Of a DNA stretch of 48,780 nucleotides, positions 2,382 through 21,181 are shown one piece after another. The DNA is from an uncultured Christensenella sp. (GTDB taxonomy: Bacteria > Bacillota > Clostridia > Christensenellales > Borkfalkiaceae). The stretch spans positions 1 through 48,780 of the forward strand of contig CAZXOQ010000001.1 of NCBI GenBank assembly GCA_964642415.1. Reading direction: 5' to 3'. Both the position numbers and the translations under genes were made by a program. Under the pieces are notes generated by a model. The model did not search any database, was not told the DNA's origin, and was given only the letters and a program-made list of their open reading frames with translations. Numbering within the stretch: the stretch's first letter is position 1; the number at the start of each line of letters is the position of its first letter.

Positions 2382-5300
2382 TTACGAGTTGGCGGAAGGA
2401 TAAATTCCGATATGCTCGTAATAGAAAGCATAACCGAACCAAGCGTCTTCTTCGTCAAGTCCGACTCTAGCGAGCGCGCGCGTCAAAACTTCTACAAGTT
2501 TTTTATCCGCTTTAACCATACCTTTGGTTTCGCCGTCGGTAGCAGCGCTTTCAGCCAAATTAATAATGTAGTCGGAATAATCCTCGCCTCCCTCGTCGGT
2601 GAAATCGAAGAACAACGTTTCGGTATCAATACGATACTTGCCGGTTGCAAGGTCTAAAAGCGAATAATCTAACATATAACCCAAACCGCTAACGGTTACA
2701 TACATATAAGATTTTTCACCCATATCGATAGAACCGTCGGGCAACACTTGGTGATAATATTCGTCACTACCTAGCTTTGCGTGTAAGTTATTGTGTCTGT
2801 TGATAACGGTAACGATATTGCCGTCTTCGTCAAGAACGTTATTGCCGTTTCCGTCAATTTTAAATGTAAACGTGCCGTCGGAAGCGTAAGTAAAGTTATC
2901 GTAAGAAACGCCGAGTTTTTCAATAAAGAAATCTAATTCACCTAAAGAATCGGGCAAATCGAACGCAACGCCGATATAATAGGTTTTGCCTGCTTCAAAG
3001 GTTACGTAAAGATTAAAGTTATCTACTGCGTCGTCATCTTTACCCGTTCCGGAGATATAAACGTAAGCGCCTTGCTTGCCGACGTATTCCTTTCCGATCT
3101 TAGAATAAACGCGATACGCGCCCGTTTCTTGACAATCGAACTTATGAATGATTCCGCGAGGAACAAGAACTCTGTCAACCACAACGTGAACGGCTTTACC
3201 GAGCTCGGTTACGGCGATAGCTTCTTTTTGGCAAAGTCCTCTTATAGGATTATCGATTTTAGCGCCGGAATAATTATCATAATAAGCGCAAAGCTCTAAC
3301 CACGTGTTATTATCGTAATAAGCCGCAAGTTTTCTTTCACAGAACTTTCTAGTCATCTGATCGAGAACAATTTGAAGCTGTTCGTCTACGGGGCAGTAAT
3401 TTTCTATATAAGAATATTGAGCATACCAAGCATAGCCCTTGCCGTATTCTACGTAACTGTTAAAGTTAGGATCGCTTGTGCCGTTGGTTATATAGGTTAC
3501 GCCTGCCGGATAGCCTGCCGTAACAAAATAACCGCCGGAAGAAAGCGAAGAAACAGAAGAAGGCGACCAAAGCGTTTCACCGCAAATATTAGCCAAAAGA
3601 AGAGGTCCGTCTACAGTGCCGACGTGATAATAACCGTCTTTTTCGTTTAAAACTACGTTTGCATACTTAGTAAGTCTGCTGTTTTCTTGGTCATATCCCC
3701 AAGCCGCCTGACGGAGAAGATTGACGCTTTCGGACTCTTCTATCGTATCGAGTGCAACAGCCGTCATATCTTTTATGGTAACACATTCGTCACCCGTCAA
3801 CCAACCGTCGCTAGAGTCTTTAGAATACATAATCATAAGCGTATGCTCTTCTGCGGCGTCGTCGTATTCGGAATTATCGGAAAGCGCTCTCGGCGTAAAC
3901 GCGTAGAAAGTCTTCCATTCGTTAGAAGTCACTCTGTCTAACGTAGCGGCTTTGCTGCCGTCGATATAAACGTCAAGCGGATCTGCGCCGCTGATATCTT
4001 CAGTATTGGTTTTGTATTTGAACGTTAAAAAGCTATCGCGATTGATTGTAAACTTGAAAGTTATAACCGCCGCGGAATTACTCTTTTTAAGGTTTGCGGG
4101 AGAAATACCGTCATCAGTGATAACCCAAGGCCAATAAGTATCGCCTTCGGGCGCAACGTAAGTTCCCGTTATACCGGTGTTGATTTTATCGTGGATATCC
4201 TCCGAATCGGGCATATCAACGTTGGGTTTTTCAATAGAGGTATCGGGTGTTTCGATAAGATTCGGGTCATAAACCGTTTGAACGTAGTCTTCTGCAGTGT
4301 ATTTGGCAAACTGAAGCTTAAACATAGCCTCGGAAGCAGAACCTTTGATAAAGTTGCAAATCTTGCCGTAACGGTCAATCATTATGCTTGTAGGCGCAGC
4401 GCCTTCCGCATAATATGAGAACGCGTTAAAAAGCGAACCTTCGTCCCTACCCATTTTTAGGGTAAGTTTATAACCGTAGTTAGCCTTATAATTGTTTATA
4501 ACGGTATCAGAGTCTGACGACATTATAGAAAGAGCTAAAACTTCGCTGTCGTTTTCGTGTTTTTCGTAAGCCTTTTGAAGCCCCTCGAATTCGGAACGGC
4601 AAGGACCGCAGGTAGAAAACCAAAAGTTAATTAAAACAAACTTTTTAGTCTTTAATATGTCGGATAATTTAAGAGTTTCTCCCGTAGAAGTTCTTACGGT
4701 AAAGTCGTAAATAATATCGTCCATATAATATTTGTGATTAGCGGGCAATTTATCTTGTATCGGAGCGGAAACAACTTTTATAACCTTTTCATTGTTTTCA
4801 GAATCGGTTTTTAAGCTTTCTTCTACTAAAGAATATCCTTTAGGCAGCCCCGTAACCTCTATATCGTATTCACCGAAAGCGGGCACGCGAATTTTAGCAA
4901 GTCCGTCTTTATCGGTGTTTTTAGAAGCTAAAACATCGTTATCCGACTTAATCGAGAGCGTAACCCCCTTAAGCGGCATTCCGCCGACGGTAACTAAAGA
5001 AAGTTCGTATTGATTAGAAACGCCTTCGTTTTCTATATAAACGGTTTTAGAGGTTTCCGTTTCGCTAAGCTCGTCGTCACCGGAATAAGAGTATCCGTCA
5101 GGCAAGTTGTATAATTCTATATAATAACTTAGCCCCTTGCTTGCGCGAAGAACGGCAACACCGTCACTACCGGTGGTTGCACCGCTGTGCGCTTCGGAAT
5201 CGTTGCCAACCTCGTATAAACGGACTTCCGCATCGAATACGGGAGTTTTATCGGGATATAAAACGGTAATGCGATAATCGATTTTTGCCATTCCGTCGTC

Positions 5301-5423
5301 CGGCGGAGCAATGGTTTCTTTACCGGGAGTCGTTTTATCACCGCAAGCAATCGCAAAGCAAGCGCAAAACGCCGTTAAAAGAGTTAACGCGGTAAGCAGT
5401 ATACGTTTAGTAATTTTTTTCAC
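2382..5423 (-). CDS. Large modular surface lipoprotein with embedded TlpA/ResA-like thioredoxin-fold (CGPC) domain
   Basis: GTG start at 5423 has AAGGAGA 5 nt upstream. The signal peptide and lipobox are ...CFAIAC (Cys27). Residues ~45-215 hold prealbumin-like modules ending LPDGY and LPKGY. Residues ~235-375 contain FVLINFWFSTCGPCRSEFEGLQKAY, with the Cys codons at 4608..4610 and 4599..4601. Residues ~395-560 show a jelly-roll-like pattern. Residues ~590-720 and ~880-1013 hold two copies of an uncharacterised module. Confidence 0.85.
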   Translation of the reverse strand: MKKITKRILLTALTLLTAFCACFAIACGDKTTPGKETIAPPDDGMAKIDYRITVLYPDKTPVFDAEVRLYEVGNDSEAHSGATTGSDGVAVLRASKGLSYYIELYNLPDGYSYSGDDELSETETSKTVYIENEGVSNQYELSLVTVGGMPLKGVTLSIKSDNDVLASKNTDKDGLAKIRVPAFGEYDIEVTGLPKGYSLVEESLKTDSENNEKVIKVVSAPIQDKLPANHKYYMDDIIYDFTVRTSTGETLKLSDILKTKKFVLINFWFSTCGPCRSEFEGLQKAYEKHENDSEVLALSIMSSDSDTVINNYKANYGYKLTLKMGRDEGSLFNAFSYYAEGAAPTSIMIDRYGKICNFIKGSASEAMFKLQFAKYTAEDYVQTVYDPNLIETPDTSIEKPNVDMPDSEDIHDKINTGITGTYVAPEGDTYWPWVITDDGISPANLKKSNSAAVITFKFTINRDSFLTFKYKTNTEDISGADPLDVYIDGSKAATLDRVTSNEWKTFYAFTPRALSDNSEYDDAAEEHTLMIMYSKDSSDGWLTGDECVTIKDMTAVALDTIEESESVNLLRQAAWGYDQENSRLTKYANVVLNEKDGYYHVGTVDGPLLLANICGETLWSPSSVSSLSSGGYFVTAGYPAGVTYITNGTSDPNFNSYVEYGKGYAWYAQYSYIENYCPVDEQLQIVLDQMTRKFCERKLAAYYDNNTWLELCAYYDNYSGAKIDNPIRGLCQKEAIAVTELGKAVHVVVDRVLVPRGIIHKFDCQETGAYRVYSKIGKEYVGKQGAYVYISGTGKDDDAVDNFNLYVTFEAGKTYYIGVAFDLPDSLGELDFFIEKLGVSYDNFTYASDGTFTFKIDGNGNNVLDEDGNIVTVINRHNNLHAKLGSDEYYHQVLPDGSIDMGEKSYMYVTVSGLGYMLDYSLLDLATGKYRIDTETLFFDFTDEGGEDYSDYIINLAESAATDGETKGMVKADKKLVEVLTRALARVGLDEEDAWFGYAFYYEHIGIYPSANS

Positions 5424-9155: not shown

Positions 9156-9183
9156 ATTATACTCATTATACGGCATTTGTCAA
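9156..9183 (-). promoter_or_regulatory. Near-consensus sigma-70/SigA promoter, about 450 nt upstream of the 954-aa lipoprotein gene
   Basis: The minus strand reads TTGACA (9183..9178), a 16-nt spacer, then TATAAT (9161..9156). I found no equally good promoter closer to the start codon at 8708. Confidence 0.55.
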
Positions 9184-9235: not shown

Positions 9236-9294
9236 ATAATAAAACCTAATAAAACCGCATAATATGCATATATTGTTGCATATTATGCGGTTTT
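9236..9294 (-). terminator. Strong terminator closing the 16-gene train
   Basis: An 18-bp perfect stem pairs aaaaccgcataatatgca (9251..9268) with tgcatattatgcggtttt (9277..9294) around an 8-nt loop. The stem ends in a U-run, and ATTAGGTTTTATTAT follows on the minus strand. Confidence 0.8.
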
Positions 9295-9332
9295 ATTCAT
9301 AAATGTTAAAATGTCAAAAATTATTTTGATTT

Positions 9333-11561
9333 TTACGCTACAGGTAGTTCTTCTAAAGGAGGCTCTACTGCATAAATTACCACCCTTTCTTTTCCGCTAC
9401 CAAAGCCCGTGGGATTGGCAAGAACTATCTTATAAGCTTCGTTTAATTCTAACGTTACGCCAAGCTCTGCGCCCGATTTATGCTCGGTTATCAGTTCTTT
9501 ATTTACGGCGTCATAAGAAACGGTTAGAACTTCTTCACCCTTGTTTGTGGTGACGGTTGCAATAATAGCGCCGTCTTCTTCACCGAAAACTATAGTGGCG
9601 TTACCCTTTTTAAGTTTTGCCGTATAACTGCCGACAAGCATTTCCGTTACGTTCGGCGGATCGATTACGGTAATAGTTACGGTACATTCCGCTTTGCCTT
9701 TTATCGATCTTAACCTTACGGTATAAGTTCCCGCTTTTGTTGCGACAAATTCCGCTGCGGCTGCGCCTTCCGCATACGATACACTTGCATAATCGCTTGC
9801 TATACCAAGCGAAGGTGTAAATCCGCTTTCAGCATAAGGCTGCTCGTCTATCGAAAGTTTTGTCTTTACCGAAAGGCTTTGCCCAACGTATACTTGCGCG
9901 GCTATATTTTTTGTGACCGACTCTTTCCAACTGTAGCCGTTATCGCCGTATTCGTAATAACACGGATACAATGCGCTTGGCGCGCATGGCAATACGTTTA
10001 TTACAAAGCGTTTTTCCGCTCCGCTTGTAGTGCGCGCGGCAAGCGTAACATAACCTTTGGTTTTAGCTCTTAAGTCTATTGTACAAGAGGTTTCGTTAAA
10101 AGAACCTGCCCATACGGGGTTACTTGTAGAATACGCAAAATCCACAGGAACGTAACGCCCCGTCGATAACACGCGATAAAACACTACGCCATCTAAAGAA
10201 AAGTTTGCAGTTGACGGCTGAACGTTGTTCAAATACAGCTTAAGAATGCTGTCACCACCGCCGGCAACAAGTTGCGGAGCGGTTTCTTTATCTTCGGTTA
10301 TGGCGATATAATCGCCGTCGCTTCTATAACACACGTCAAAATCGGATATTTTAAGCGAATTTTCGTTATACTCGTGAACGGGTTCTTCAGGAGCGTCTTT
10401 TTTGAGTATCTGATTATATATAATATACTCGGCGGCTCTCGGCTCGCCGCAACCCGTTTTTAACTTACAAACAGTTTTGTTTTCTACCTCGCTTATTTCA
10501 AACTGCGACTGTACGTACGTATCGCAACTGAGCTTGATATAATCTATAGCATACTCGTCTGTTAAAGTAAACTCCACCTCTACCTTATTAAGCGTTGACG
10601 GCACGTTGAAATAACAAAAACTGAATTTATACAATATACGCGTTATACCGTTATCTTCTTTTTCGGTGATTTGAACGGTAAAATCTTGGTTGGTATCTTT
10701 TGCGCCCCATTCGTAAGAATATTTTAGCAAGCCTTCCGCTCCGAAAAACGTTTTGCCGGCAAAGCTGATTTTATATTCGTAACCGTTTAAGTGGTCTTTA
10801 CGAATGTTAGCGTATTCTTCTACGTTTGTAGAACCGGAAGTACCGATTACGCCGAAAACTCCGCCGTTTTCTTTTTGAATCGCCCAAAGTTTAGTGCTGC
10901 CGTTATCCGTTTTGGTATACCCTTCACCGTATTCGTAACTTGCGCCATAAATAGATTCGTCACCGTTAAGGTCAAACTTAATGCTGGCAGTGCCGCGTCT
11001 TATCAAATCTTTATTGCTAGATCCGAGAAGAACCGCGTCATAAACGGTTTCCTTATTCGCTTTTAGCGGATCTATATCGGGGTTGCCCGTAGGGTAAAAC
11101 TCTTTTTTGCCGATTGTTATGGTAAAAATTATGTCACCGTATTCGCTTTCGTATATCAAGGCAAGCTTGCCATCGGATAATACGGTGGCTTCTTTTACAA
11201 TTTCGTGATACTTATAGCCGGAATAACTTTCGCTTAAACGCGGCAAGGTTACTTTTATATAGTGCGAAGAATCCTCTTTACATATCTTGGTTGCTTCACC
11301 TTTGCCGTCCCTTTCGTACGTGGGGGCTTTCGTTATCTCCCAATCGGTGTAAACGTGGTTTTCCGCAATAGGTTCGGTCGGTTCTTCTACCACCTCTCCG
11401 CATAAAGAACATATGCCGTATCTAACGCCGTTTGAGGTACAAGTGGCTTCGGTTTTTACCTTCCATCTGAATACTTCGTGTCGGCAACCGCATGCAAACA
11501 TACCGGATGCCGCCAAACAAAGCAGCAAAAGGGTTATAAGCATTGCAATCTTTTTTTTCAT
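9333..11561 (-). CDS. Surface lipoprotein (742 aa) with N-terminal Cys/His knuckle modules, function unknown
   Basis: ATG at 11561 has AAGGAGG upstream. The signal peptide and lipobox are ...ASGMFAC. The mature N-terminus is GCRHEVFRWKVKTEATCTSNGVRYGICSLCGE followed by a degenerate second unit (NHVYTDWEITKAP...KICKEDSSH). I recognise no family in the rest. Confidence 0.85.
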   Translation of the reverse strand: MKKKIAMLITLLLLCLAASGMFACGCRHEVFRWKVKTEATCTSNGVRYGICSLCGEVVEEPTEPIAENHVYTDWEITKAPTYERDGKGEATKICKEDSSHYIKVTLPRLSESYSGYKYHEIVKEATVLSDGKLALIYESEYGDIIFTITIGKKEFYPTGNPDIDPLKANKETVYDAVLLGSSNKDLIRRGTASIKFDLNGDESIYGASYEYGEGYTKTDNGSTKLWAIQKENGGVFGVIGTSGSTNVEEYANIRKDHLNGYEYKISFAGKTFFGAEGLLKYSYEWGAKDTNQDFTVQITEKEDNGITRILYKFSFCYFNVPSTLNKVEVEFTLTDEYAIDYIKLSCDTYVQSQFEISEVENKTVCKLKTGCGEPRAAEYIIYNQILKKDAPEEPVHEYNENSLKISDFDVCYRSDGDYIAITEDKETAPQLVAGGGDSILKLYLNNVQPSTANFSLDGVVFYRVLSTGRYVPVDFAYSTSNPVWAGSFNETSCTIDLRAKTKGYVTLAARTTSGAEKRFVINVLPCAPSALYPCYYEYGDNGYSWKESVTKNIAAQVYVGQSLSVKTKLSIDEQPYAESGFTPSLGIASDYASVSYAEGAAAAEFVATKAGTYTVRLRSIKGKAECTVTITVIDPPNVTEMLVGSYTAKLKKGNATIVFGEEDGAIIATVTTNKGEEVLTVSYDAVNKELITEHKSGAELGVTLELNEAYKIVLANPTGFGSGKERVVIYAVEPPLEELPVA

Positions 11562-11583: not shown

Positions 11584-13056
11584 TTATGCGTAATAGCCGC
11601 ATGCAAACAGCCATTGATTGCTGTCGCTAGAACTGTAAAACTGCTCGAAATTGCCGTTTATATCGTATACGCCTTCCGCACTGCCGGTGCCGTCGTTGAA
11701 TATGCGTTTGCTCTTTGAATAACGTTGCAAGAAGTCCTTTAATTCTTCCGTAACGGGGTAAACTCCGTCTTTATTGCAATAATCACCGTACGCTTTATCA
11801 AAGCTATAGCCCGCTAAGCCTATAAACGTACCGTAATTATAAAGGTTGGTTTGCTTAGTTTTTTCGTCATATTCGGTAAGGAATATATTATTCATCCCCT
11901 TAAAGCCCGAACCGATAGTTTCGCCGTCGGATGAAGACAAAACTTCGCAATCTTGAGTGATTTTTGCATACAAACGGGTTTTGAAGTTTCTTTCTTCGTC
12001 TACTATATAATAATAAGAAAATCCGTCTTCTTCTATCAACTGTATATAACTGCCGTCAAGCAAACCGTTATTATTGCCGTACCATGCGTAGTATTTGAAA
12101 CTGCCCGACGTATACTTTGAATCGAATGCCGTATCTTTTGCATTTTCAAAATCGTGGGTGGCGTACATCTTTAGCCAAGAATCCCTTTCCGTCCCCGTAA
12201 AGTCACCGTCACGATCAAGAATAAAATCTATATTTATCGGAAAAGCGCCTTTATCTAAGGTCGTTGCGTATATTCTAAAGTTAAATACGTTACCCGTATG
12301 CGAAGAGGATATATTAAATTCCCAACGGAAATTTTTAGTATAAGTATTTGAAGAACCGCCGTCGTCTAACGTTTCTTTTACAGACTCGTTTACATATTCC
12401 GAGCTACCGTTATGCATATCTAACAACGGATTTATCTTATTTTGCGTAATATCAACGTAAGACTCTATCGTATATTCGCCTTGTAGCGTCGGTCGGTAGG
12501 TAAAACGAACGCCGTCTTCAAAATTGTCTGCAGTAAGCATAACACGGTATGCCCCCAAAGATTCTATAGCGCATATATCGTCATACCAATTAGTTCCCGT
12601 TCTGCCGTTGGGTACGGTAGACAATTCATACAGTTTTATCACTGCGTTTGGCGAATCGTTTCCGACTATGTGCGCTTCGTCGTTCGGGTTATAGGTATAA
12701 CCTTCGGGTACGGAGCTTAACGTTACCATATAGTCGCCGTCTAATCCGCTGATTTCGGCTATGCCTTTAGAGTTGAACGCCGCCGTAAACGACGCGCCGT
12801 TATTGCTGTCTATATTTGTCCATATAGCTTTTATTTCAGCTAATTCTACGGATGTAAAGGTTTTTTCGCAATCGAAGGATACGGTAAAGACTTTTTCCGA
12901 CGTTTGCCCCGAACCGCCGCCGCTTCCACCGCTTGTGCCGCCGTTATTGGTGCTGCCGCCCGTTCCCGGAAGTAACGTTCCGCCGCAGGACGCCGCGGTA
13001 ATCATTATCGCAGCGCACAAAAAGAATGCAATTATGCTTTTAAATTTCTTTTTCAC
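11584..13056 (-). CDS. Surface lipoprotein (490 aa), condensed paralogue of the C-terminal half of the 1013-aa lipoprotein
   Basis: GTG start at 13056 has GGAGG upstream. The lipobox is ITAASC, followed by a Gly/Ser linker. One prealbumin-like module ends LSSVPEGYTY. A GAYRV... jelly-roll-like region follows. The C-terminal module is ...GVYPVTEELKDFLQRY...NQWLFACGYYA. Confidence 0.85.
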   Translation of the reverse strand: MKKKFKSIIAFFLCAAIMITAASCGGTLLPGTGGSTNNGGTSGGSGGGSGQTSEKVFTVSFDCEKTFTSVELAEIKAIWTNIDSNNGASFTAAFNSKGIAEISGLDGDYMVTLSSVPEGYTYNPNDEAHIVGNDSPNAVIKLYELSTVPNGRTGTNWYDDICAIESLGAYRVMLTADNFEDGVRFTYRPTLQGEYTIESYVDITQNKINPLLDMHNGSSEYVNESVKETLDDGGSSNTYTKNFRWEFNISSSHTGNVFNFRIYATTLDKGAFPINIDFILDRDGDFTGTERDSWLKMYATHDFENAKDTAFDSKYTSGSFKYYAWYGNNNGLLDGSYIQLIEEDGFSYYYIVDEERNFKTRLYAKITQDCEVLSSSDGETIGSGFKGMNNIFLTEYDEKTKQTNLYNYGTFIGLAGYSFDKAYGDYCNKDGVYPVTEELKDFLQRYSKSKRIFNDGTGSAEGVYDINGNFEQFYSSSDSNQWLFACGYYA

Positions 13057-13066
13057 GGGTTACCTC

Positions 13067-15751
13067 CTACATTTTGCCCTTGCCGAACAAACTGCGGATA
13101 TCTTCCCACCGTAGTTTGCGGATAGCAACGTCTGCAGCGAAAAGTATTACGCTTATCACCAATAACGTTACGGTTAAATCGTATATATACGTGCTAATTA
13201 AGCTTTCGTCGTTTTCTATAAACAGTCTATCGCCGTCTTTCATCACCTTGCCGTAAGAGCCCACCATCTTTTGCAACGAAGACTTATCGTAAGAAGCAAA
13301 CGCGTCGTATTCAGGCAAGTAAGACAAGTTATAAGTAAAGCTTGCCGTATAGTTTGCGTCACCGGGGTAAATATATTCTACGTTGATAGAATATTTGCCG
13401 ACGGCTGAAGGCTCGAACCGATAAGAGTATGATGAAGATGAAAAACTCATATCCTGAGATTCCGCAAGTTTATCGTTATCCGGTCCTGTCACGGTTATTT
13501 TAGCTTTAACGCGAGTATCAACGCGCGCAGGCGTAAGCGTCACGTTAACAAAACCGTTTTCTTCTATCATCGTTGCGACGAAAGGATAAGAAGCTTTTTC
13601 CGTAGGGGTGTTGGTATCGAACACGTTAGAAATAAACTTATCTCTTTGCGGCAACCCCTCGGTTGTTATTTTATCTAGGTTACACGCAAGCGTTGAAACT
13701 TTGCCGTTGCCGTAATTCCAATAAGAATATAGCGGAACTTTTTCAATCTTTCCGTTTTCTCGCTCGTACAAGCTTTCTAACACGGTAACGGCGCTCCATT
13801 TAGACCTGTTATATAAAAAGCCCGTTACGTAATCGCTTGGATTAATCTCGATATCTTTTAGCACGCTATCCGAACTTCTGACTACGTTTATGTGCGCGTT
13901 ATCGTCAATGACCGCGCTGCCGAAGTCGTCTAACAATCCTTTGCCGAATTCTACTTCTAATTCGTCTTTATTAGAAGCAAAGTAATATTCGCCACCCGTT
14001 TTTTGAGCAATGCTTTTAAGCAACGCTTCCGCAGAAGAAGACGCCGCACTGGTATCGTTGCCGCGACCGACGTCTATAACCGACGCGGAAATTCCGTATT
14101 GATTAAGTTTTGTAAGCTGCTCCGTAATCAACGCGGTTTCGTCAGCGTCGCCTACCGTCATACCGTCGCTTATAAGCATTATTTGCTTTTGACCGTAGCT
14201 TAGGTCTTTGATAAGCCTTACCGCTTCTTGTAATCCGTAACTGATAACAGTGCCGTGGTGCGTGTATAAGTCGTCTACCGCTTTGATAGCAAGTTCTCTC
14301 GTAGAATAAATCTCACCGCTTGCGGGGGTGTCGGATATTTCTTCCGGCATAAATACGGGATGATAATTACCGTCAAAAGACACTATGCATAAGTTATCTT
14401 TTTCGTTAAGCTTAGTTATAAGCTGTTTCGCGGCTGTTTTAGCTATGGTAAATCTTTGATTAAGATCCATACTGTAAGACGCGTCTATAACCAACGTATA
14501 AAGTTTAGAGTCCCTATCGGCGTTGCCGAATCTAACTGGTAACATACTGCCAAGCGAAGAAAGCTCTTCTTTTTCGTGCAAATAAACGTTGCCGTACGTT
14601 ATAAGGCTTTTGCCGAATAGCGACACAGCAGAATCAAGCCCTTCTATAAAAGCTTTATAATCGCGCGATTTAGTTAGATCTACGTTAGATAAAATAATTT
14701 CGTCATACAAGCAAAGCTGCTCTGAACTGCAAGGAATTTCGTCGTTAGTAGAAAAAGAATCAACCGTCGCTTTTATATCGTAAGCTCTTTCTATATCGAC
14801 GCGGTCGGAATCGTTATCCGTGATAAGCAACACGCGAGCCTTGCCCGAAACCTTTTGTGTAAATATAACGCTGTTGTTAAACTTATTTTCGTCGTCATCG
14901 GCGGTTACGGTTACGCGATAATCGAATACCCCCTCGGAATTAGTATCTAGGTTGAACCCGACAACGTTATATCCGTTGGTAAGATTTGCAATCCTGCTTT
15001 CAATTTCTATACTGCCCCTATAAAGCGAAAGTTTTGCTTGAGCGGAATAGGTGCTTTGTATAGTTATTTCAGCGCTTTCAGCCTTGCCGAGGTAGGTGTT
15101 TTGAGTAACTTCTGCTGAAATAATTTGAATTTCTTTCGCGCTAGACGAAATATTGTTGTCTAAATATACCGCGTCAACGTAAACGTTTTCCGCTCGCAAC
15201 GTATCGGCGGCGCGTTTTAGCGCGTTTGAATCGCTCAAATGCGTCTGTTTGCCGTCGGATATTACGACGATTCTTTTTATAACGTCGTTTCTGAACAAGG
15301 AATTTGCGTAATCTAAAGCCGACTCTATATCCGTTTCGCCATCGTTAAGCAATTCGGTATTAGCGCCTCTTACGCTTTTTAAGTTGCTACCGAGCCTTAC
15401 GTATAATTGTTGTTCTTTAGCAAAACACACAACACCCATCTCCGCTCCGCGCGGAAGATTTGCCTTAAGCTCTTTTATATATCCGTCCATCGTGTCGAGA
15501 TTTTTATTTGAAGAATAAGAAACGTCGGCTAAAACGTAAACTTCCGTTTTGGTTACGGTGGTTTCTATCGTTGTGCCTGCGGCGGTGAACGCTATTATCA
15601 CGGCAAGCAAAACGTGTATAACGCACGAAGCCACGCTATGCCAATTAGCATTTTCCTTACGAACGGCAATAATAAACGGAACGACAAGCAATATTGCAAG
15701 CGGTATTGCAAGCAATAACAAATAGGGATTATCGAAGCTGATACTGCTCAT
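13067..15751 (-). CDS. Membrane-anchored protein with two vWA (MIDAS) domains, BatB-like
   Basis: I prefer ATG at 15751 (MSSISFDNPYLLLLAIPLAILL...), which has GGGGGGTG upstream. The ORF-track start at 15790 is a TTG lying inside the upstream gene. The protein has two N-terminal TM helices and two DxSxS motifs (LADVSYSS, VIDASYSM). A C-terminal TM helix is followed by a basic tail. Confidence 0.85.
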   Translation of the reverse strand: MSSISFDNPYLLLLAIPLAILLVVPFIIAVRKENANWHSVASCVIHVLLAVIIAFTAAGTTIETTVTKTEVYVLADVSYSSNKNLDTMDGYIKELKANLPRGAEMGVVCFAKEQQLYVRLGSNLKSVRGANTELLNDGETDIESALDYANSLFRNDVIKRIVVISDGKQTHLSDSNALKRAADTLRAENVYVDAVYLDNNISSSAKEIQIISAEVTQNTYLGKAESAEITIQSTYSAQAKLSLYRGSIEIESRIANLTNGYNVVGFNLDTNSEGVFDYRVTVTADDDENKFNNSVIFTQKVSGKARVLLITDNDSDRVDIERAYDIKATVDSFSTNDEIPCSSEQLCLYDEIILSNVDLTKSRDYKAFIEGLDSAVSLFGKSLITYGNVYLHEKEELSSLGSMLPVRFGNADRDSKLYTLVIDASYSMDLNQRFTIAKTAAKQLITKLNEKDNLCIVSFDGNYHPVFMPEEISDTPASGEIYSTRELAIKAVDDLYTHHGTVISYGLQEAVRLIKDLSYGQKQIMLISDGMTVGDADETALITEQLTKLNQYGISASVIDVGRGNDTSAASSSAEALLKSIAQKTGGEYYFASNKDELEVEFGKGLLDDFGSAVIDDNAHINVVRSSDSVLKDIEINPSDYVTGFLYNRSKWSAVTVLESLYERENGKIEKVPLYSYWNYGNGKVSTLACNLDKITTEGLPQRDKFISNVFDTNTPTEKASYPFVATMIEENGFVNVTLTPARVDTRVKAKITVTGPDNDKLAESQDMSFSSSSYSYRFEPSAVGKYSINVEYIYPGDANYTASFTYNLSYLPEYDAFASYDKSSLQKMVGSYGKVMKDGDRLFIENDESLISTYIYDLTVTLLVISVILFAADVAIRKLRWEDIRSLFGKGKM

Positions 15752-17651
15752 AGCAATACACCCCCCAATCGGCGACGAACAACGCCGCAAGAATTATAAA
15801 CAATATGATAATATCGTCGTAAACACCGTCTTTAGTTAAAGCAACCGCTTCACCGGTTATTTCAAAACTAGAACATTCCGCAACGGGAACACCCTCTTCA
15901 TACGGGGTTTGCGCATACATATAAACCGTTCTTTCGGCGGCGTTTAAACCGCCCGTTTTTACCGTTACGGCATATAAGCCCGTTTCTTTTAATTTATATT
16001 GCGTTACGGCGGTTTCGGTATCGAGTTCTTCGTCTGCACCGCTCGGAGAAGTAACGCGGATACTTACGCAGTTGGCAACGACGTTTATATCGGCGGTGTC
16101 TCCGCAAAAATAGTCTGATTTATCTATGATAGACGGAAAAGTATACTCAAGTAAATTATTTGTAAGTTGCAGCCAATTGAAGCCCAACACAAAATCGGAA
16201 TCGTTAAGGCTGAACGCAAAAACAACTTCTCTGTTGCCGTAATCGTTAGAACCGGCAAATAAAACGGGATTCCCCTCGCAATACAAAAGAGAAACAAATT
16301 CACCGTTTATGCTGTATTTAGAATAATTTGACAATGCGATTTCTTCGTTTTTATCTACACCGGACAACAGCTTTCTCACGGTTGAAGCGGAAGATTCGCT
16401 ATACGTTAAAATTCTTTTTGCGTCTTCACCGGCGTTACTTTGATAACTGAAGCCCGATGAGTTTACGTTTGTGGGAGAAAAAAACCAAACCGCGCCCGAT
16501 TCCGGCATTCTTTCGGGCGTATAGCCGTTAAAAATATATAATCCGTAAGTAAGCGAATGGACGGAATTTTCATATTCTTTTGGCGTAATAACGTCTGCCT
16601 CGCCGTATCCCAACGCGCTGAGTGCGGACTTTATAAAGAACGGTCCTTCGCTTACGATAAGCGCGCTAAAAGAGGAATCGCGTTTTACGTTATACTTAAT
16701 AATAGCGTCGTCTGACGGAAAAGCGTCGTCTGAGTTTATCGCTATGCGTAACGAGCGGTATTCGGTGACCCCCTCGCATAAGATAGAAAAATCTGTCGCG
16801 AGAGAAAGCAACTCGTCGGAAAGTTCTTCTTTTTCGTCGGGAATCGCCACAGTATCGTTTATTCCTTCGATTTCGATATCAACGCTAGCCGTTGCAACGG
16901 AATTTTCGTCAATATATGCCGAAACGGTAAGATTTTTGTTATTCCCGTAAGAAATTGCCTTGCCGTAAATTTCTAAACCTTTTTCGGTAAAAACCGCATT
17001 TGCAGCCAATACGGCACAGTTTTCTTCGCTATAAGACAGATTGCACACATTCACGTTAGATACCGAACGGAAATTTTTATCCGTCATAAAATACACGGAA
17101 GGCGCGGTTGTTTTGTCAAATATCTTTTGAGCCTCGGAAAGAACGGACTCCGTATCCGCCGAAACGGAATCTGCAACCGTTTCTTTCAGCAATTCTACGG
17201 CGCGCTCTTTATCGGTAAGTTCTTTATACGCGACGACGGCTGTATCCCCCGCGCAAATAAGAGTATAACTGCTTCCGTTGCCCGATTGCAAAATAATTTC
17301 TTCTATTTTAGATTTTCCGCGTTCGAAACGGGTGCTTCCGTCTTGAACAAAATTCATACTAACGGAACAATCGAGAACAAAACAATAATCGTTAGCCTTA
17401 CCTTGCAACGCAAACACCGGATGCGCGGTTGAAACGGAAATACAAATAACGGCAAGAATTTGCAGTATTAAGCTTAAAATATTGTAAATACGCGTTATCG
17501 GGTTTTTGTTTTTCAAAAACCTTTCGCTTAGCGTCCAAATATAAGTTGACGCAACCGTTTGTTCGGTATATTTATTTTTTATAATGTAAATGATTATTAG
17601 GATAGGTACGGCTATCAACCCCAATAATCCTAAGGGATAAAGAAATGTCAC
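15729..17651 (-). CDS. BatA-type N-terminal double-TM protein with vWA-like domain
   Basis: GTG start at 17651 overlaps the DUF58 stop (GTGA). MTFLYPLGLLGLIAVPILIIIYIIK is the aerotolerance-regulator N-terminal (BatA_N) pattern. A second TM helix follows, then a MIDAS-like FVLDCSVSM motif and a C-terminal TM helix. Confidence 0.8.
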   Translation of the reverse strand: MTFLYPLGLLGLIAVPILIIIYIIKNKYTEQTVASTYIWTLSERFLKNKNPITRIYNILSLILQILAVICISVSTAHPVFALQGKANDYCFVLDCSVSMNFVQDGSTRFERGKSKIEEIILQSGNGSSYTLICAGDTAVVAYKELTDKERAVELLKETVADSVSADTESVLSEAQKIFDKTTAPSVYFMTDKNFRSVSNVNVCNLSYSEENCAVLAANAVFTEKGLEIYGKAISYGNNKNLTVSAYIDENSVATASVDIEIEGINDTVAIPDEKEELSDELLSLATDFSILCEGVTEYRSLRIAINSDDAFPSDDAIIKYNVKRDSSFSALIVSEGPFFIKSALSALGYGEADVITPKEYENSVHSLTYGLYIFNGYTPERMPESGAVWFFSPTNVNSSGFSYQSNAGEDAKRILTYSESSASTVRKLLSGVDKNEEIALSNYSKYSINGEFVSLLYCEGNPVLFAGSNDYGNREVVFAFSLNDSDFVLGFNWLQLTNNLLEYTFPSIIDKSDYFCGDTADINVVANCVSIRVTSPSGADEELDTETAVTQYKLKETGLYAVTVKTGGLNAAERTVYMYAQTPYEEGVPVAECSSFEITGEAVALTKDGVYDDIIILFIILAALFVADWGVYCYEQYQLR

Positions 17652-18535
17652 TTTGTTATTCCAGCCTTAACCATTTTATTAAAGAATATTTCACCGACGC
17701 TGTCTAAATCGGATACAAGAAGATAATCGGCGTTACGGGCTTCGCAATAACTTTTGATTTTGCCCGTAACGTAATCGCGCGCTTCTGCGTACGCCTTCAA
17801 AACCCTGCGGCTAATGTTTTTGCGGTAAGTTTTATCGAAATTTTCAGAATCGAATAAATGCATTTTACCGCGTAGTTTCGGATTTAATTCGTCCGAGGTT
17901 AGTGTTTGCACGCACAAAACTTGCCTGCGCTTAGATATAAGGTGATCTATTGCAGACTCGTATTCGTTGTCGGTTAAAAAATCGGATATAATTATAGAAA
18001 GCCCGTCGCCGTAACCGATATCTTCGTGTTTGCAAATAGCTTCGCCAATGCTGCTCTCGCCCGAAAAATCTATATCGTTTACTTTGCCGATGTTATTGAG
18101 AAAACCTTCTTTATCGGATAAATTTACGACAACGTCTTCTACCTTATTGCCATTGATTATATAGATAGAAGCTTTATCCGCCGAACAAATCGAAAGATAA
18201 GAAATGAAGGTTGCCATTCTTACAGCCTGCTCCGCCTTATACCCCATACCGAAATCCATAGAACGGCTTGCGTCTATATAAATTTTAGCATGCAAACGAC
18301 GTTCGTCTTGATAACGCTTGGTATAAAGATTTTCCGTTCGGGCGTAAGCGTTCCAATCGATTTTAGTAACGTCGTCACCGGCAACGTATTCGCGCACGTC
18401 GGCAAAATCGCACGACGAGCCGTAAGATTTACTTTTGTTGTTTCCGCCGAATAAACCGTTATAATAGTATTTAGCAATAATTTGCATAGTTTCTATTTGG
18501 TTTAAATATGCGTCGTCAATAACAATTCTTTTCAT
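17648..18535 (-). CDS. DUF58 family protein (vWA-fold partner of MoxR ATPases)
   Basis: FADVREYVAGDDVTKIDWNAYARTENLYTKRYQDERRLHAKIYIDASRSM matches the DUF58 signature (R-x-Y-x-x-GD...I-x-W...AR...D-x-S-x-SM). The gene lies directly downstream of MoxR. Confidence 0.85.
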   Translation of the reverse strand: MKRIVIDDAYLNQIETMQIIAKYYYNGLFGGNNKSKSYGSSCDFADVREYVAGDDVTKIDWNAYARTENLYTKRYQDERRLHAKIYIDASRSMDFGMGYKAEQAVRMATFISYLSICSADKASIYIINGNKVEDVVVNLSDKEGFLNNIGKVNDIDFSGESSIGEAICKHEDIGYGDGLSIIISDFLTDNEYESAIDHLISKRRQVLCVQTLTSDELNPKLRGKMHLFDSENFDKTYRKNISRRVLKAYAEARDYVTGKIKSYCEARNADYLLVSDLDSVGEIFFNKMVKAGITK

Positions 18536-18576
18536 AAAAAAATCCTTTAGAACAAAAACGTGTTTTTTTTCAATCG

Positions 18577-19569
18577 TTATCTATTCCACGTTTTTTTAGT
18601 TTCAGCTATTAACTGCGCTAATACGTCGTCAACGGATAGCTTATCGTTTATAGCAGCAAAATTAACTTTTACTCTGTGTCTTAATACGGGATAAGCCAAT
18701 GCGTCGATATCTTCGTAAGAAACGTTATAGTTTCCGTTTATAAGCGCGCGAACCTTAGCGCACGTAATAAGCGCCTGAACCGCACGGGGCGACGCGCCGT
18801 ATTTAAGATATTTCTTTGCGGTTTCAGAAGAATTCTCTAATTCGGGATGCGTATTTGTAACAAGAGTTACCGCATAATTTAACACGTCTTCTATTACCGG
18901 TAAGTCTTTGGCTATAGTACGCATTTCTAGTACGGTTGCGCCGTCTATAACGGCGGATGCGGTTTCATCCATAGTGATTTGAGTCATATTAACTATATCC
19001 GCAAGTTCGTTTTTGCTTGGGAATTTCATTATCAACTTAAGCATAAAACGGTCCATTTGCGCTTCGGGCAACGGATAAGTTCCGTCTTGCTCTATCGGGT
19101 TTTGCGTTGCAAGAACGAAAAACGGCTCCGCAAGGTTATAAGTGCATTTGGCAACGGTAACCTTATGTTCTTGCATTGCTTCGAGCATTGCCGCTTGCGT
19201 TTTAGGCGTAGCACGGTTTATTTCGTCGGCTAAAACGAGGTTGGCAAATATAGGTCCGCGTTGGAAAACGGAATTAAGTCTTCCGTTTTCGTCTTTTTCT
19301 ATAACGTTTGTTCCCGTTACGTCAGACGGCATAAGGTCGGGCGTAAACTGTATTCTAGAAAAAGGCAAATCTAACGTTTTGCCGAGCGAACGAACCAAAC
19401 GCGTTTTGCCAACGCCGGGAACGCCTTCTAACAACACGTTGCCGCCTGCAATTATAGCGATTATAACGTTTTCGACAATATCGGTTTGCCCTACGACGTC
19501 TTTACGCAGCTCTTCTTTTATTTTAGCTACCGATTGACTGAAAATTTTCACTTTTTCTTCGTTAACCAT
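18577..19569 (-). CDS. MoxR-family AAA+ ATPase (AAA_3)
   Basis: 330 aa. Walker A is LLEGVPGVGKT. Walker B and the sensor region are LVLADEINRATPKTQAAMLEAMQE. Size and C-terminal lid are typical of MoxR. No signal peptide or TM helix is present. Confidence 0.92.
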   Translation of the reverse strand: MVNEEKVKIFSQSVAKIKEELRKDVVGQTDIVENVIIAIIAGGNVLLEGVPGVGKTRLVRSLGKTLDLPFSRIQFTPDLMPSDVTGTNVIEKDENGRLNSVFQRGPIFANLVLADEINRATPKTQAAMLEAMQEHKVTVAKCTYNLAEPFFVLATQNPIEQDGTYPLPEAQMDRFMLKLIMKFPSKNELADIVNMTQITMDETASAVIDGATVLEMRTIAKDLPVIEDVLNYAVTLVTNTHPELENSSETAKKYLKYGASPRAVQALITCAKVRALINGNYNVSYEDIDALAYPVLRHRVKVNFAAINDKLSVDDVLAQLIAETKKTWNR

Positions 19570-19621
19570 TGTTAATCTCCGTTTGTTTTTTTATAGTTAT
19601 CTGATTATTATAATCGGCTTG

Positions 19622-21124
19622 TTACGCCGAAGGATTCGTATCGGTTCCGCTTAACGCGTTTATATATTTTTTTATATAACTCTTCATTTCTTCCGACAAC
19701 TCGGAATCGGAATCGTTTATTCTTTTGTATAACTCGGTCATATATTCGTTCCATATGTTGCCGTACTTCGTTTGTTCGGATTTTTCCGGATCGAAAACCA
19801 AATCGTCGCTTGCATACTGAGCTTCGTTGTCGCCGACGCTTCCGCTTTGCGACGGTTTTTCCGATTCGCTGCCGTCACCCGATTGCCCCGGCAAAACAAG
19901 CTCTTCAGGCGAAACGCTTACCCCGAAAATAGAGGATAAATTATTGCAAATAAATTCGTTTGCCATTCGGTTGTATACTTGATAATATAAAACTTTAGAT
20001 GATTCTGACAGGCAGTTTGCGCAAGCCGTGCCTACAATATCGTAAAGCGCTGACAAAGTGTGGTTTTTGTCCGCCTTGCCCAATGCTGTAGAAAACTCGC
20101 TAAGAACGTTAAAAAAATCGTCAGAAGAAACTCTTTCGTCTTCTAATCCCTGTTCCATAACGTTATTAAACGGATCGAGAAATTCCGAAATAAGCTCTAA
20201 TATTTCCGACTTAGCGGCACATTTATACGCTTCGTCCGTCAATTTATTTGTAAAAGTCGATAATTCGTTTCTTATAGCCGAATCGATTGTTTCGGCACGA
20301 TCCGTTAAATCGGAGGCGTCTAATAATTTTTTACCTTCGATTTGATAACAATTTACGGCGTTTATAATTGAATTCTTGAAACCGTCAAGCGAAGCTTCTT
20401 GGTTCAAATACAAAGCTACGTCACGATAAGTATTTGCATAAATAACGGCGGCGTCTATAGTTTTTGCCGCAGTTCTAACCAAGGTGCGCATTTCAGAAGA
20501 TTTATTTGTTTTTTTCAATTCTTCGCGAAGCGTTTCAAGGCTTTCGGTCATCACGATTTTGACGTCGTTTTTAATATTGAAGTTTTTTACGTCGGATATA
20601 ACCTGTTCAAGCGCGGCTTCATCCCACGAGCCGAAAACAAATCTATCCGGATCTGACGGCGGAACGAAACGCGACGGAATAGCCATCCCCGTAAAAAAGG
20701 TTATACAACCTAAAACGCCTATCGCGATATATTGCCATAACATTTTTATCGAAGGTCTTTTAAGTTTTAAGTTCTTTAAGGTTGCGTCGGCGTTTTCACG
20801 TTGCAAGCGGAGCATTTCCCCTTCTTGCCCGTCAAATTCGACCATCGTTTGAATTTTTTCGTTAAGACAATATTCTTTATCTAAACGCTTTGCCAAAGAC
20901 TTATTTCTTGGCATAGCAATCAAATAGGTCGCGCAAAACGCAACAACCGCCGCAATCACACCCGTTATGATATAAATATATAGCGCGACGTACAATGCGC
21001 TGAGTTTTATGATTAGCATAAGCGCGCCGATAGCGAAAAGGGCGCAAAAAACTCCGACGGCTGCGCTTTTTGCGAGCGCCGTAGTCGTGAATTTCTTTTT
21101 GAAATAATTAAAGCTTGCCAACAT
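19622..21124 (-). CDS. Hypothetical 3-TM membrane protein with ~340-aa external helical domain and acidic tail
   Basis: ATG at 21124 has AAGAGG upstream. A TM hairpin spans residues ~20-75 and a third TM helix lies near residue 125-145. I recognise no family. It is the first gene of the MoxR block. Confidence 0.7.
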   Translation of the reverse strand: MLASFNYFKKKFTTTALAKSAAVGVFCALFAIGALMLIIKLSALYVALYIYIITGVIAAVVAFCATYLIAMPRNKSLAKRLDKEYCLNEKIQTMVEFDGQEGEMLRLQRENADATLKNLKLKRPSIKMLWQYIAIGVLGCITFFTGMAIPSRFVPPSDPDRFVFGSWDEAALEQVISDVKNFNIKNDVKIVMTESLETLREELKKTNKSSEMRTLVRTAAKTIDAAVIYANTYRDVALYLNQEASLDGFKNSIINAVNCYQIEGKKLLDASDLTDRAETIDSAIRNELSTFTNKLTDEAYKCAAKSEILELISEFLDPFNNVMEQGLEDERVSSDDFFNVLSEFSTALGKADKNHTLSALYDIVGTACANCLSESSKVLYYQVYNRMANEFICNNLSSIFGVSVSPEELVLPGQSGDGSESEKPSQSGSVGDNEAQYASDDLVFDPEKSEQTKYGNIWNEYMTELYKRINDSDSELSEEMKSYIKKYINALSGTDTNPSA

Positions 21125-21151: not shown

Positions 21152-21181
21152 CTACGCAAAGCATAAAAATGCTTTGCGTAG
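21152..21181 (-). other. 12-bp perfect hairpin without U-tract between the GLUG lipoprotein gene and the MoxR block
   Basis: ctacgcaaagca (21152..21163) pairs with tgctttgcgtag (21170..21181) around loop taaaaa. The flanks agtctacgc and gcgagatt echo segment S1 of the mosaic repeat. On the minus strand it is followed by ACTAAACGGG, not a U-run. Confidence 0.5.

Follow-up and report, generated by a model that had tools for sequence, protein, structure and literature searches.

We analysed a window of 48,780 nt (positions 1-48780), which is the whole contig CAZXOQ010000001.1 (C1 of G000) of a metagenome-assembled genome (MAG) from an uncultured gut Christensenella sp. (GCA_964642415.1; 91% complete, 3.5% estimated contamination). 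The window contains a cassette of seven genes, all on the minus strand between positions 21124 and 9333, in the order p500, MoxR, DUF58, v640, v894, lipoA and lipoB (Table 1). The cassette combines a MoxR ATPase and a DUF58 protein with two membrane proteins of the von Willebrand factor A (vWA) type, a further membrane protein with three transmembrane (TM) helices and two predicted lipoproteins. Domains were assigned with Pfam and NCBIfam models at their gathering scores or model cut-offs, and AAA_3, DUF58, BatA and VWA/VWA_2 were matched in the expected proteins, in agreement with the original prediction of the first five genes, their order and their positions. Because the window makes up an entire contig and the MAG has the contamination given above, the assignment of the window to the genus is not certain, which leaves the identity of the cassette itself unaffected.

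Table 1. Coordinates of the cassette genes and of their motifs, domains and predicted segments in the window.
Feature	Position	Strand	Description
p500	19622..21124	-	First gene of the cassette; 500 aa, 3-TM helical membrane protein; no Pfam match
p500 cytosolic loop 71-125	20750..20914	-	Predicted; conserved LAKRLDxEYxLNEKxQTMxEF...LQRE
MoxR	18577..19569	-	330 aa, cytoplasmic AAA+ ATPase; AAA_3 6.7e-62, AAA_lid_2 1.1e-14
MoxR Walker A GVPGVGKT	19402..19425	-	Motif
MoxR Walker B LADEINR	19213..19233	-	Motif
DUF58 protein	17648..18535	-	295 aa, cytoplasmic; DUF58 2.4e-26
DUF58 DASRS	18260..18274	-	DxSxS motif; fourth of the cassette, cytoplasmic
v640	15729..17651	-	640 aa; BatA_N (Pfam BatA) 1.2e-10, VWA_2 3.7e-08
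v640 TM1-TM2 loop	17481..17579	-	33 aa, basic; predicted cytosolic
v640 DCSVS	17358..17372	-	DxSxS motif
v640 body	15819..17423	-	Predicted to face outward
v894	13067..15751	-	894 aa from ATG; VWA_2 2.1e-22 at 72-168, VWA 1.3e-18 at 420-598
v894 body	13184..15574	-	Predicted to face outward
v894 vWA1	15062..15538	-	VWA_2 match
v894 DVSYS	15512..15526	-	DxSxS motif
v894 vWA2	13952..14509	-	VWA match
v894 DASYS	14471..14485	-	DxSxS motif
v894 C-terminal tail	13070..13120	-	Basic; predicted cytosolic
lipoA	11584..13056	-	490-aa lipoprotein; no Pfam match
lipoB	9333..11561	-	742-aa lipoprotein, variable last gene; no Pfam match
Terminator-like hairpin	9249..9296	-	Stem of 20 pairs with a T-rich tail behind it, 37 nt past the lipoB stop

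Regarding the spacing of the genes, p500 and MoxR are separated by 52 nt, MoxR and DUF58 by 41 nt, v894 and lipoA by 10 nt and lipoA and lipoB by 22 nt, the last two values being exactly those originally given; the DUF58 stop overlaps the v640 start by 4 nt, and v640 and v894 overlap by 23 nt. An AGGAGG ribosome-binding site overlaps the v894 stop codon just 5' of the lipoA start, and AAGGAGG precedes lipoB. The hairpin after lipoB is the sole strong terminator-like one on the minus strand, and the gene beyond it has its own perfect 12/12 promoter-like site (9183..9156). Owing to the overlaps, the short gaps, the ribosome-binding sites at the junctions and the presence of a terminator-like hairpin only after lipoB, the seven genes may be read as one operon, with transcription probably ending at the hairpin. 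The 107-nt gap upstream of p500 yielded no convincing promoter-like site, so that p500 may be read through from the upstream gene of 1367 aa; a perfect 12-bp hairpin without T-run is present in this gap (21152-21181, minus strand).

The MoxR protein is a member of the AAA_3 family (207.6 bits against a cut-off of 27; AAA_lid_2 54.3 bits) and is encoded by the only AAA_3 gene in the assembly. The DUF58 protein scores 92.7 bits against the cut-off of 23.4 for PF01882, with a match that covers profile positions 1-209 of 216. A hydropathy scan found neither a TM segment nor a signal peptide in MoxR or DUF58, as expected from the prediction that both lack an export signal. We propose that DUF58 is a vWA-like adaptor of MoxR. 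AAA_3 matches beside p500-type genes nearly all begin at profile position 2, and the other MoxR paralogues of the same genomes mostly begin at position 1; there are hints that the cassette MoxRs form a subclade of their own.

TM helices were located by a Kyte-Doolittle scan, which agrees with two N-terminal helices and one C-terminal helix in both vWA proteins. In the predicted layout of v640, TM1 is followed by the basic cytosolic loop, TM2, the outward body, TM3 and a tail of 8 residues, and v894 consists of a TM1-TM2 hairpin, the outward body, a GATase1-like region, TM3 and the cytosolic tail. The K/R-rich TM1-TM2 loop noted earlier in v640 is present, and of the two C-terminal tails that had been called basic this is true for v894 (net +4), the tail of v640 (CYEQYQLR) having a net charge of 0. 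v640 matches Pfam BatA (PF07584) with 42.1 bits against a cut-off of 25.9, as do 12 of 12 homologues, and lies slightly under the cut-off of NCBIfam TIGR02226 (20.1 versus 23.05). v894 shares the BatA-like hairpin shape, yet has no BatA match. The three DxSxS motifs predicted in these two proteins were all located. v894 has two complete metal ion-dependent adhesion sites (MIDAS), neither of which varies among 12 homologues (D76/S78/S80/T140/D166 and D423/S425/S427/T501/D529), and GATase1_like was matched in 7 of the 12. The longest v894 open reading frame (ORF) starts with TTG at 15790 and encodes 907 aa; the homologues align from the ATG.

p500 had been described as an unrecognised 3-TM protein, and we found three TM helices in the Kyte-Doolittle scan, no Pfam or NCBIfam match, and neither a fold match (Foldseek) nor a sequence match in the PDB. 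Single-chain AlphaFold2 (AF2) models of p500 and lipoA were compared with the PDB by Foldseek. The p500 model is all-helical (pLDDT 87.6). It opens with a TM hairpin and two or three short helices; TM3 leads into a long helical bundle (166-400), and after a disordered stretch the chain ends in a small C-terminal module. The predicted ectodomain past TM3 is acidic and helical and measures about 350 aa. A profile search yielded 1778 representative clusters, 562 of them below 1e-30, and with no match in Pfam or NCBIfam p500 thus represents a large family outside both libraries. Only two columns, D82 and T93, are invariant in 57 diverse sequences, and both are located in the cytosolic loop. DUF4175 (PF13779) was considered as the family of p500 and rejected, since the best relative reaches 26 bits, under the cut-off of 27.3, and the p500 of the window has no match. 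The near-match comes from one distant p500-type protein (G003; profile 444-666, E 1.2e-6) in 1 of 29 genomes, and one alignment member gives an E value of 0.079; we regard DUF4175 as a lead to distant homology and not as membership. A p500-like frame with an in-frame TGA was noted at G006:C11:130448-131128, on a contig without AAA_3 gene, and is possibly a decayed cassette remnant; a congener of this genome (G271) carries an intact p500-MoxR pair.

Both downstream genes encode putative lipoproteins, in line with the prediction, with an N-terminal signal peptide and a lipobox-like sequence ending in cysteine (TAAS-C, i.e. TAASC, in lipoA and GMFA-C, with MFAC, in lipoB); the lipoA cysteine, Cys24, is invariant in 52 homologues. 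Lgt (PF01790) was not matched in the 91%-complete assembly and is present in 12 of 12 genomes of the same genus, and its gene probably sits on a piece missing from the assembly. Neither lipoprotein has a Pfam or NCBIfam match. In the AF2 model of lipoA (pLDDT 87.1) a disordered Gly/Ser linker leads to an Ig/prealbumin-like domain and then to a jelly-roll, and the C-terminal domain is of the alpha/beta type and without match. The jelly-roll is similar to the domains with which ColG binds collagen (PPC; Foldseek TM score 0.64-0.74, probability 1.0). Judged from the model, the domains of lipoA appear to be of a binding type without catalytic signature. A close paralogy of lipoA to the neighbouring lipoproteins was rejected (BLASTP E 0.05 or weaker); they have in common an Ig/prealbumin-like module of marginal similarity.

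The arrangement of the cassette is conserved far beyond the window. In five of five metagenome contigs reached via p500 or lipoA homologues (G+C content 47-58%) the order of the seven positions is the same. A lipoA profile scan of species-representative genomes found the family in 262 genomes, all of them gut MAGs, under the names Christensenellaceae, Christensenella, Clostridia, Coproplasma, Borkfalkiaceae and Pumilibacteraceae. Hidden Markov models (HMMs) were then run on the best 80 loci of these 262 genomes, and the order p500, MoxR, DUF58, BatA_N-vWA, double-vWA and lipoA was intact in all 71 loci with enough upstream DNA, with lipoA directly 3' of the double-vWA gene in 80 of 80 loci (genome G+C content 40-58%). 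Stop/start overlaps or gaps of 1-10 nt connect the double-vWA gene and lipoA. In a class-wide sample of 300 Clostridia genomes from 178 genera, the p500 family was present in 32 genomes (about 10%) and 22 genera; p500 was the directly upstream, same-strand neighbour of an AAA_3 gene in at least 27 of the 32, the rest being unlisted or at contig ends. Full-length lipoA was found in three of the 300 genomes, each time inside the cassette. Wherever the surroundings of a full-length lipoA match were examined in the class-wide or the family-wide sample, the match is located in a cassette, although for two of the family matches only the presence of an AAA_3 gene on the same contig was shown and for one the position could not be established. 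A conserved linkage of the p500 family and of lipoA to MoxR-DUF58 loci, on which the original prediction depended, is thus present. The idea of defined lipoprotein partners was supported for lipoA, with the qualification that its family is confined to a Christensenellales-like sub-lineage and is a partner only there, and needs a further qualification for lipoB, which is only loosely conserved: a homologue was found at the same position in 41 of 80 loci by phmmer and in 62 of 80 by HMM, and in distant cassettes the position is taken by a different large lipoprotein of 683-1898 aa.

Further observations concern the genes around the core. lipoB carries a His/Cys-rich N-terminal motif, and in every lineage the variable last lipoprotein opens with such units (H..W...C.H......CD.CG; window 11262-11492, minus strand; L005:19682-21277; L007:11697-; L008:11698-), whose number differs, the remainder of the proteins being unrelated. 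In the distant cassettes L009-L012 the five-gene core from p500 to the double-vWA gene is kept, and other genes precede or follow it. In one of these a gene for Lit (lipoprotein intramolecular transacylase, PF07314, 2.4e-44) is directly 3' of the double-vWA gene (L011:6941-7681, genome G040), and the same adjacency was seen at G105:C23:25113-25670; as Lit adjoins the cassette in only one genus and is located elsewhere in 17 other cassette-bearing genomes, it was discarded as a general neighbour. In two distant cassettes the immediate upstream neighbour of the p500-like gene encodes an ABC-2 family permease (L011:16132-16992, L012:15932-16558). Finally, 4 kb downstream of the operon in the window (2382-5423, minus strand) there is a gene for a lipoprotein of 1013 aa with an AhpC/TSA-Redoxin domain (4.2e-13) and SpaA-like modules. 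L006 and about 8-10 of the 80 loci have a homologue of this thioredoxin-fold lipoprotein close to the cassette, sometimes divergently upstream, and the protein was rejected as a core partner on account of this low number.

Within the family of the host the cassette is rare. lipoA was found in 6 of 61 genomes and 4 of 23 genera of the family, the best lipoA profile scores came from another genus of the family, and only 1 of 15 other genomes of the host genus contains an AAA_3 gene. Even within its own genus the cassette is thus an uncommon, accessory element, and either it has been acquired or lost repeatedly or the contig was mis-binned.

Membrane topology was assessed by charge counts over 72-75 family members aligned to the proteins of the window. 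The TM1-TM2 loop is net positive in 74 of 74 v640 homologues and in 74 of 75 v894 homologues, the C-terminal tail of v894 is net positive in 75 of 75, and the segments flanking both vWA bodies are net negative in most sequences. For p500 the N-terminus is net positive in 71 of 72 sequences and the C-terminal ~350 aa are net negative in all 72 (median -35). This family-wide positive-inside pattern points to vWA bodies on the outside and to cytosolic loops and tails, in accordance with the original prediction and with Borrelia BB0173, a BatA_N protein whose vWA domain was experimentally mapped to the periplasm (PMC5700661); an extracytoplasmic placement of BatA_N-type vWA proteins is in itself already known. 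By the same reasoning the N-terminus and loop 71-125 of p500 are predicted to be cytosolic and its helical domain to be external. No Omp85 gene was found in a search of the assembly, so that the host is taken to be a monoderm and 'outside' to be its cell surface. p500, v640 and v894 are accordingly predicted to expose only short conserved loops or tails inside and 350-800 residues outside, with ectodomains made up of three vWA domains, two of which have complete MIDAS, together with an acidic helical bundle and GATase1-like and Ig-like modules.

Conservation falls with distance from the ATPase. Across cassettes with a G+C content of 47-58%, identity to the window proteins amounts to 73-80% for MoxR, 51-58% for DUF58, 34-50% for the vWA proteins, 28-41% for lipoA, 23-38% for p500 and 0-37% for lipoB. 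In each membrane protein the predicted cytosolic segments and the TM helices are more conserved than the external body (v640 loop 3.49 bits and tail 4.12 bits versus body 2.35-2.54; p500 loop 2.56 bits versus ectodomain 1.61). The most conserved stretch of v640 is its C-terminal YCYE[QK]YQLR (15729-15755, minus strand), which is near-invariant in the lipoA-type clade at 4.12 bits per column. Conserved cytosolic handles combined with fast-evolving ectodomains in all three membrane proteins point to the transmission of a force or signal across the membrane.

The cassette belongs to the Bat/Cmd kind. As in the Bat loci of Bacteroides fragilis, Borrelia (bb0170-bb0176) and Leptospira (batABD), MoxR and DUF58 are encoded directly upstream of membrane proteins with a BatA_N hairpin and vWA/MIDAS domains, and the vWA domain is external, periplasmic in BB0173 (PMC5700661) and predicted here. 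In contrast to these loci no TPR (BatC/BatE) or BatD family was matched in any of the seven cassette proteins, which bears out the claim that TPR proteins are missing, and the cassette is headed by the 3-TM helical protein, has lipoprotein genes appended and resides in a monoderm host without Omp85. BatA and BatB are proteins of about 330 aa, whereas the cassette vWA proteins are larger (640 and 894 aa) and have an extra C-terminal TM anchor and GATase1-like modules. The equivalog models of Leptospira BatA and BatB gave 15-23 bits against cut-offs of 350-380, and since these scores are far under the cut-offs and TPR and BatD proteins are missing, the cassette is not a Bat operon in the strict sense (batA-batE). 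The operon cmdA-cmdD of Rhizobium leguminosarum (RL3499-RL3502) is likewise headed by MoxR and has membrane partners, and its mutation, as summarised in PMC5700661, results in envelope and cell-morphology defects, which point to an envelope-directed role. The likeness is one of operon layout and published phenotype, and cmdA-cmdD differs in having four genes, a diderm proteobacterial host and no lipoprotein partners described. In the classical MoxR-vWA pairs, an AAA+ MoxR hexamer and a vWA/MIDAS adaptor act on a dedicated client complex. RavA-ViaA, reported as such a chaperone pair in PMC3893208, CbbQ-CbbO and NorQ-NorD resemble the cassette in joining MoxR to a vWA/MIDAS adaptor, a part that DUF58 would play here, but in these pairs ATPase, adaptor and client are in one compartment, while three of the four MIDAS-type motifs of the cassette are predicted to lie across the membrane from the ATPase. 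Neither the Clostridia variant nor the p500 family nor the lipoprotein partners were described in the literature that we searched.

While the composition and the topology of the cassette are well supported, its mechanism is one that we infer from them. With middling confidence we suggest that a MoxR/DUF58 engine acts via cytosolic handles on an external vWA/MIDAS scaffold that holds or assembles the lipoproteins. DUF58, with its vWA fold and its own DxSxS motif, would serve as the adaptor of MoxR in the manner of the vWA partners of other MoxR systems and would dock on the cytosolic handles of the three membrane proteins, the invariant Asp82 of the p500 loop being a candidate MIDAS ligand. ATP-driven remodelling of these handles could in turn control how the outer vWA scaffold assembles or which conformation it adopts. 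The MIDAS sites of the scaffold would bind the co-encoded lipoproteins via metal ions, in the first place lipoA and variably lipoB or its equivalents, and the scaffold would thereby hold, mature or organise these lipoproteins on the cell surface. As an accessory element the cassette probably does not have a housekeeping role but serves niche-specific surface biology, for instance adhesion or capture.

Several points weigh against this proposal. The topology is based on hydropathy and charge counts, and conserved adjacency is evidence of co-regulation and not of binding. Regarding the three extracytoplasmic MIDAS domains of the original prediction, the two v894 sites stand, but in the v640 family only D94, S98 and D191 are invariant and the MIDAS Thr is not conserved, so that this site fits the MIDAS pattern in part and may be degenerate. 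In the class-wide sample lipoA accompanies only 3 of the 32 p500-cassette genomes, and other lineages have unrelated genes at its position; with lipoA in only a minority of p500-type cassettes, the core machine works without it.

The main rival, to which we assign an appreciable but clearly smaller likelihood, is that MoxR and DUF58 function only in biogenesis, i.e. in the insertion or metal loading of the vWA proteins and p500, and that the finished complex is a passive scaffold or adhesin without ongoing signalling. MoxR ATPases are described in PMC3893208 as maturation chaperones of dedicated complexes, and the vWA proteins, which have no cleavable signal peptide, need to translocate the 550-800 residues that follow their N-terminal TM hairpin. 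By itself, however, a role confined to biogenesis leaves unexplained why the cytosolic loops and tails are the best-conserved parts of the mature proteins, although a chaperone could still recognise them, and why the operon is always headed by a third membrane protein, one whose cytosolic motif is conserved.

The other explanations are weaker. It seems rather unlikely to us that the lipoproteins are passengers, which would be transcribed along with the MoxR/vWA core as common adhesins or binding proteins of a lipoprotein-rich region and would have no physical or functional tie to it. The window is rich in large lipoprotein genes, lipoB is highly variable, lipoA is missing from most p500-type cassettes and its Ig/prealbumin-like module is common, with marginal similarity, to the neighbouring lipoproteins; all of this would be expected of passengers, but not the position of lipoA directly after the double-vWA gene in every one of the 80 loci over a wide range of G+C content, the overlaps or very short gaps that join the two genes, or the confinement of full-length lipoA with examined surroundings to the cassette, the three less certain family matches aside. 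We further considered a bacterial counterpart of integrin inside-out activation, in which the MoxR/DUF58 motor would pull on the cytosolic loops and tails, ATP would switch the affinity of the external vWA/MIDAS domains so that lipoproteins or external ligands are bound or released, and p500 would be the transmembrane coupler; this reading is speculative and on the whole improbable.

A role as an aerotolerance or redox device, as proposed for the Bacteroides Bat operon, which would shield the extracytoplasmic space of a strict anaerobe from oxidative damage, perhaps together with the nearby thioredoxin-fold lipoprotein, is very unlikely: MoxR, DUF58 and the BatA_N-vWA protein do resemble those of Bat operons, and the AhpC/TSA-Redoxin lipoprotein does recur in L006 and a few of the 80 loci, but it is missing from most of them, no redox domain was matched by Pfam or NCBIfam in any of the seven proteins, equivalents of BatC, BatD and BatE were not found, and even for the Bat proteins a redox role is unproven (PMC5700661). 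Hardly credible is a MoxR-vWA conflict or anti-phage system, or a cytoplasmic location of the vWA domains as in the classical pairs, for although ternary MoxR-vWA conflict systems are reported (eLife 2020, PMC7159879), the MoxR of the window also matches the bpMoxR model and the distribution is patchy and accessory, PADLOC gave generic P-loop matches to MoxR only (E 1.9e-5 or weaker) and none to the other six proteins, hence no specific defence match for any cassette protein, Pfam found no effector, protease or beta-propeller domain, and both the BB0173 experiment and the charge bias seen throughout the families locate the vWA bodies outside.

Few conserved gene clusters of unknown function are as common as modules of the MoxR-DUF58-BatA type, and the aerotolerance and envelope phenotypes published for them have given no mechanism. 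The p500 family offers a handle on this problem, with its invariant residues in a loop that is predicted to be cytosolic and could be engaged from the ATPase side, and lipoA, which is found beside the double-vWA gene wherever its surroundings are readable, is a candidate client or ligand. If the partnership between the engine, the scaffold and lipoA is real, a biochemical role could be assigned to MoxR-DUF58-BatA-type modules.

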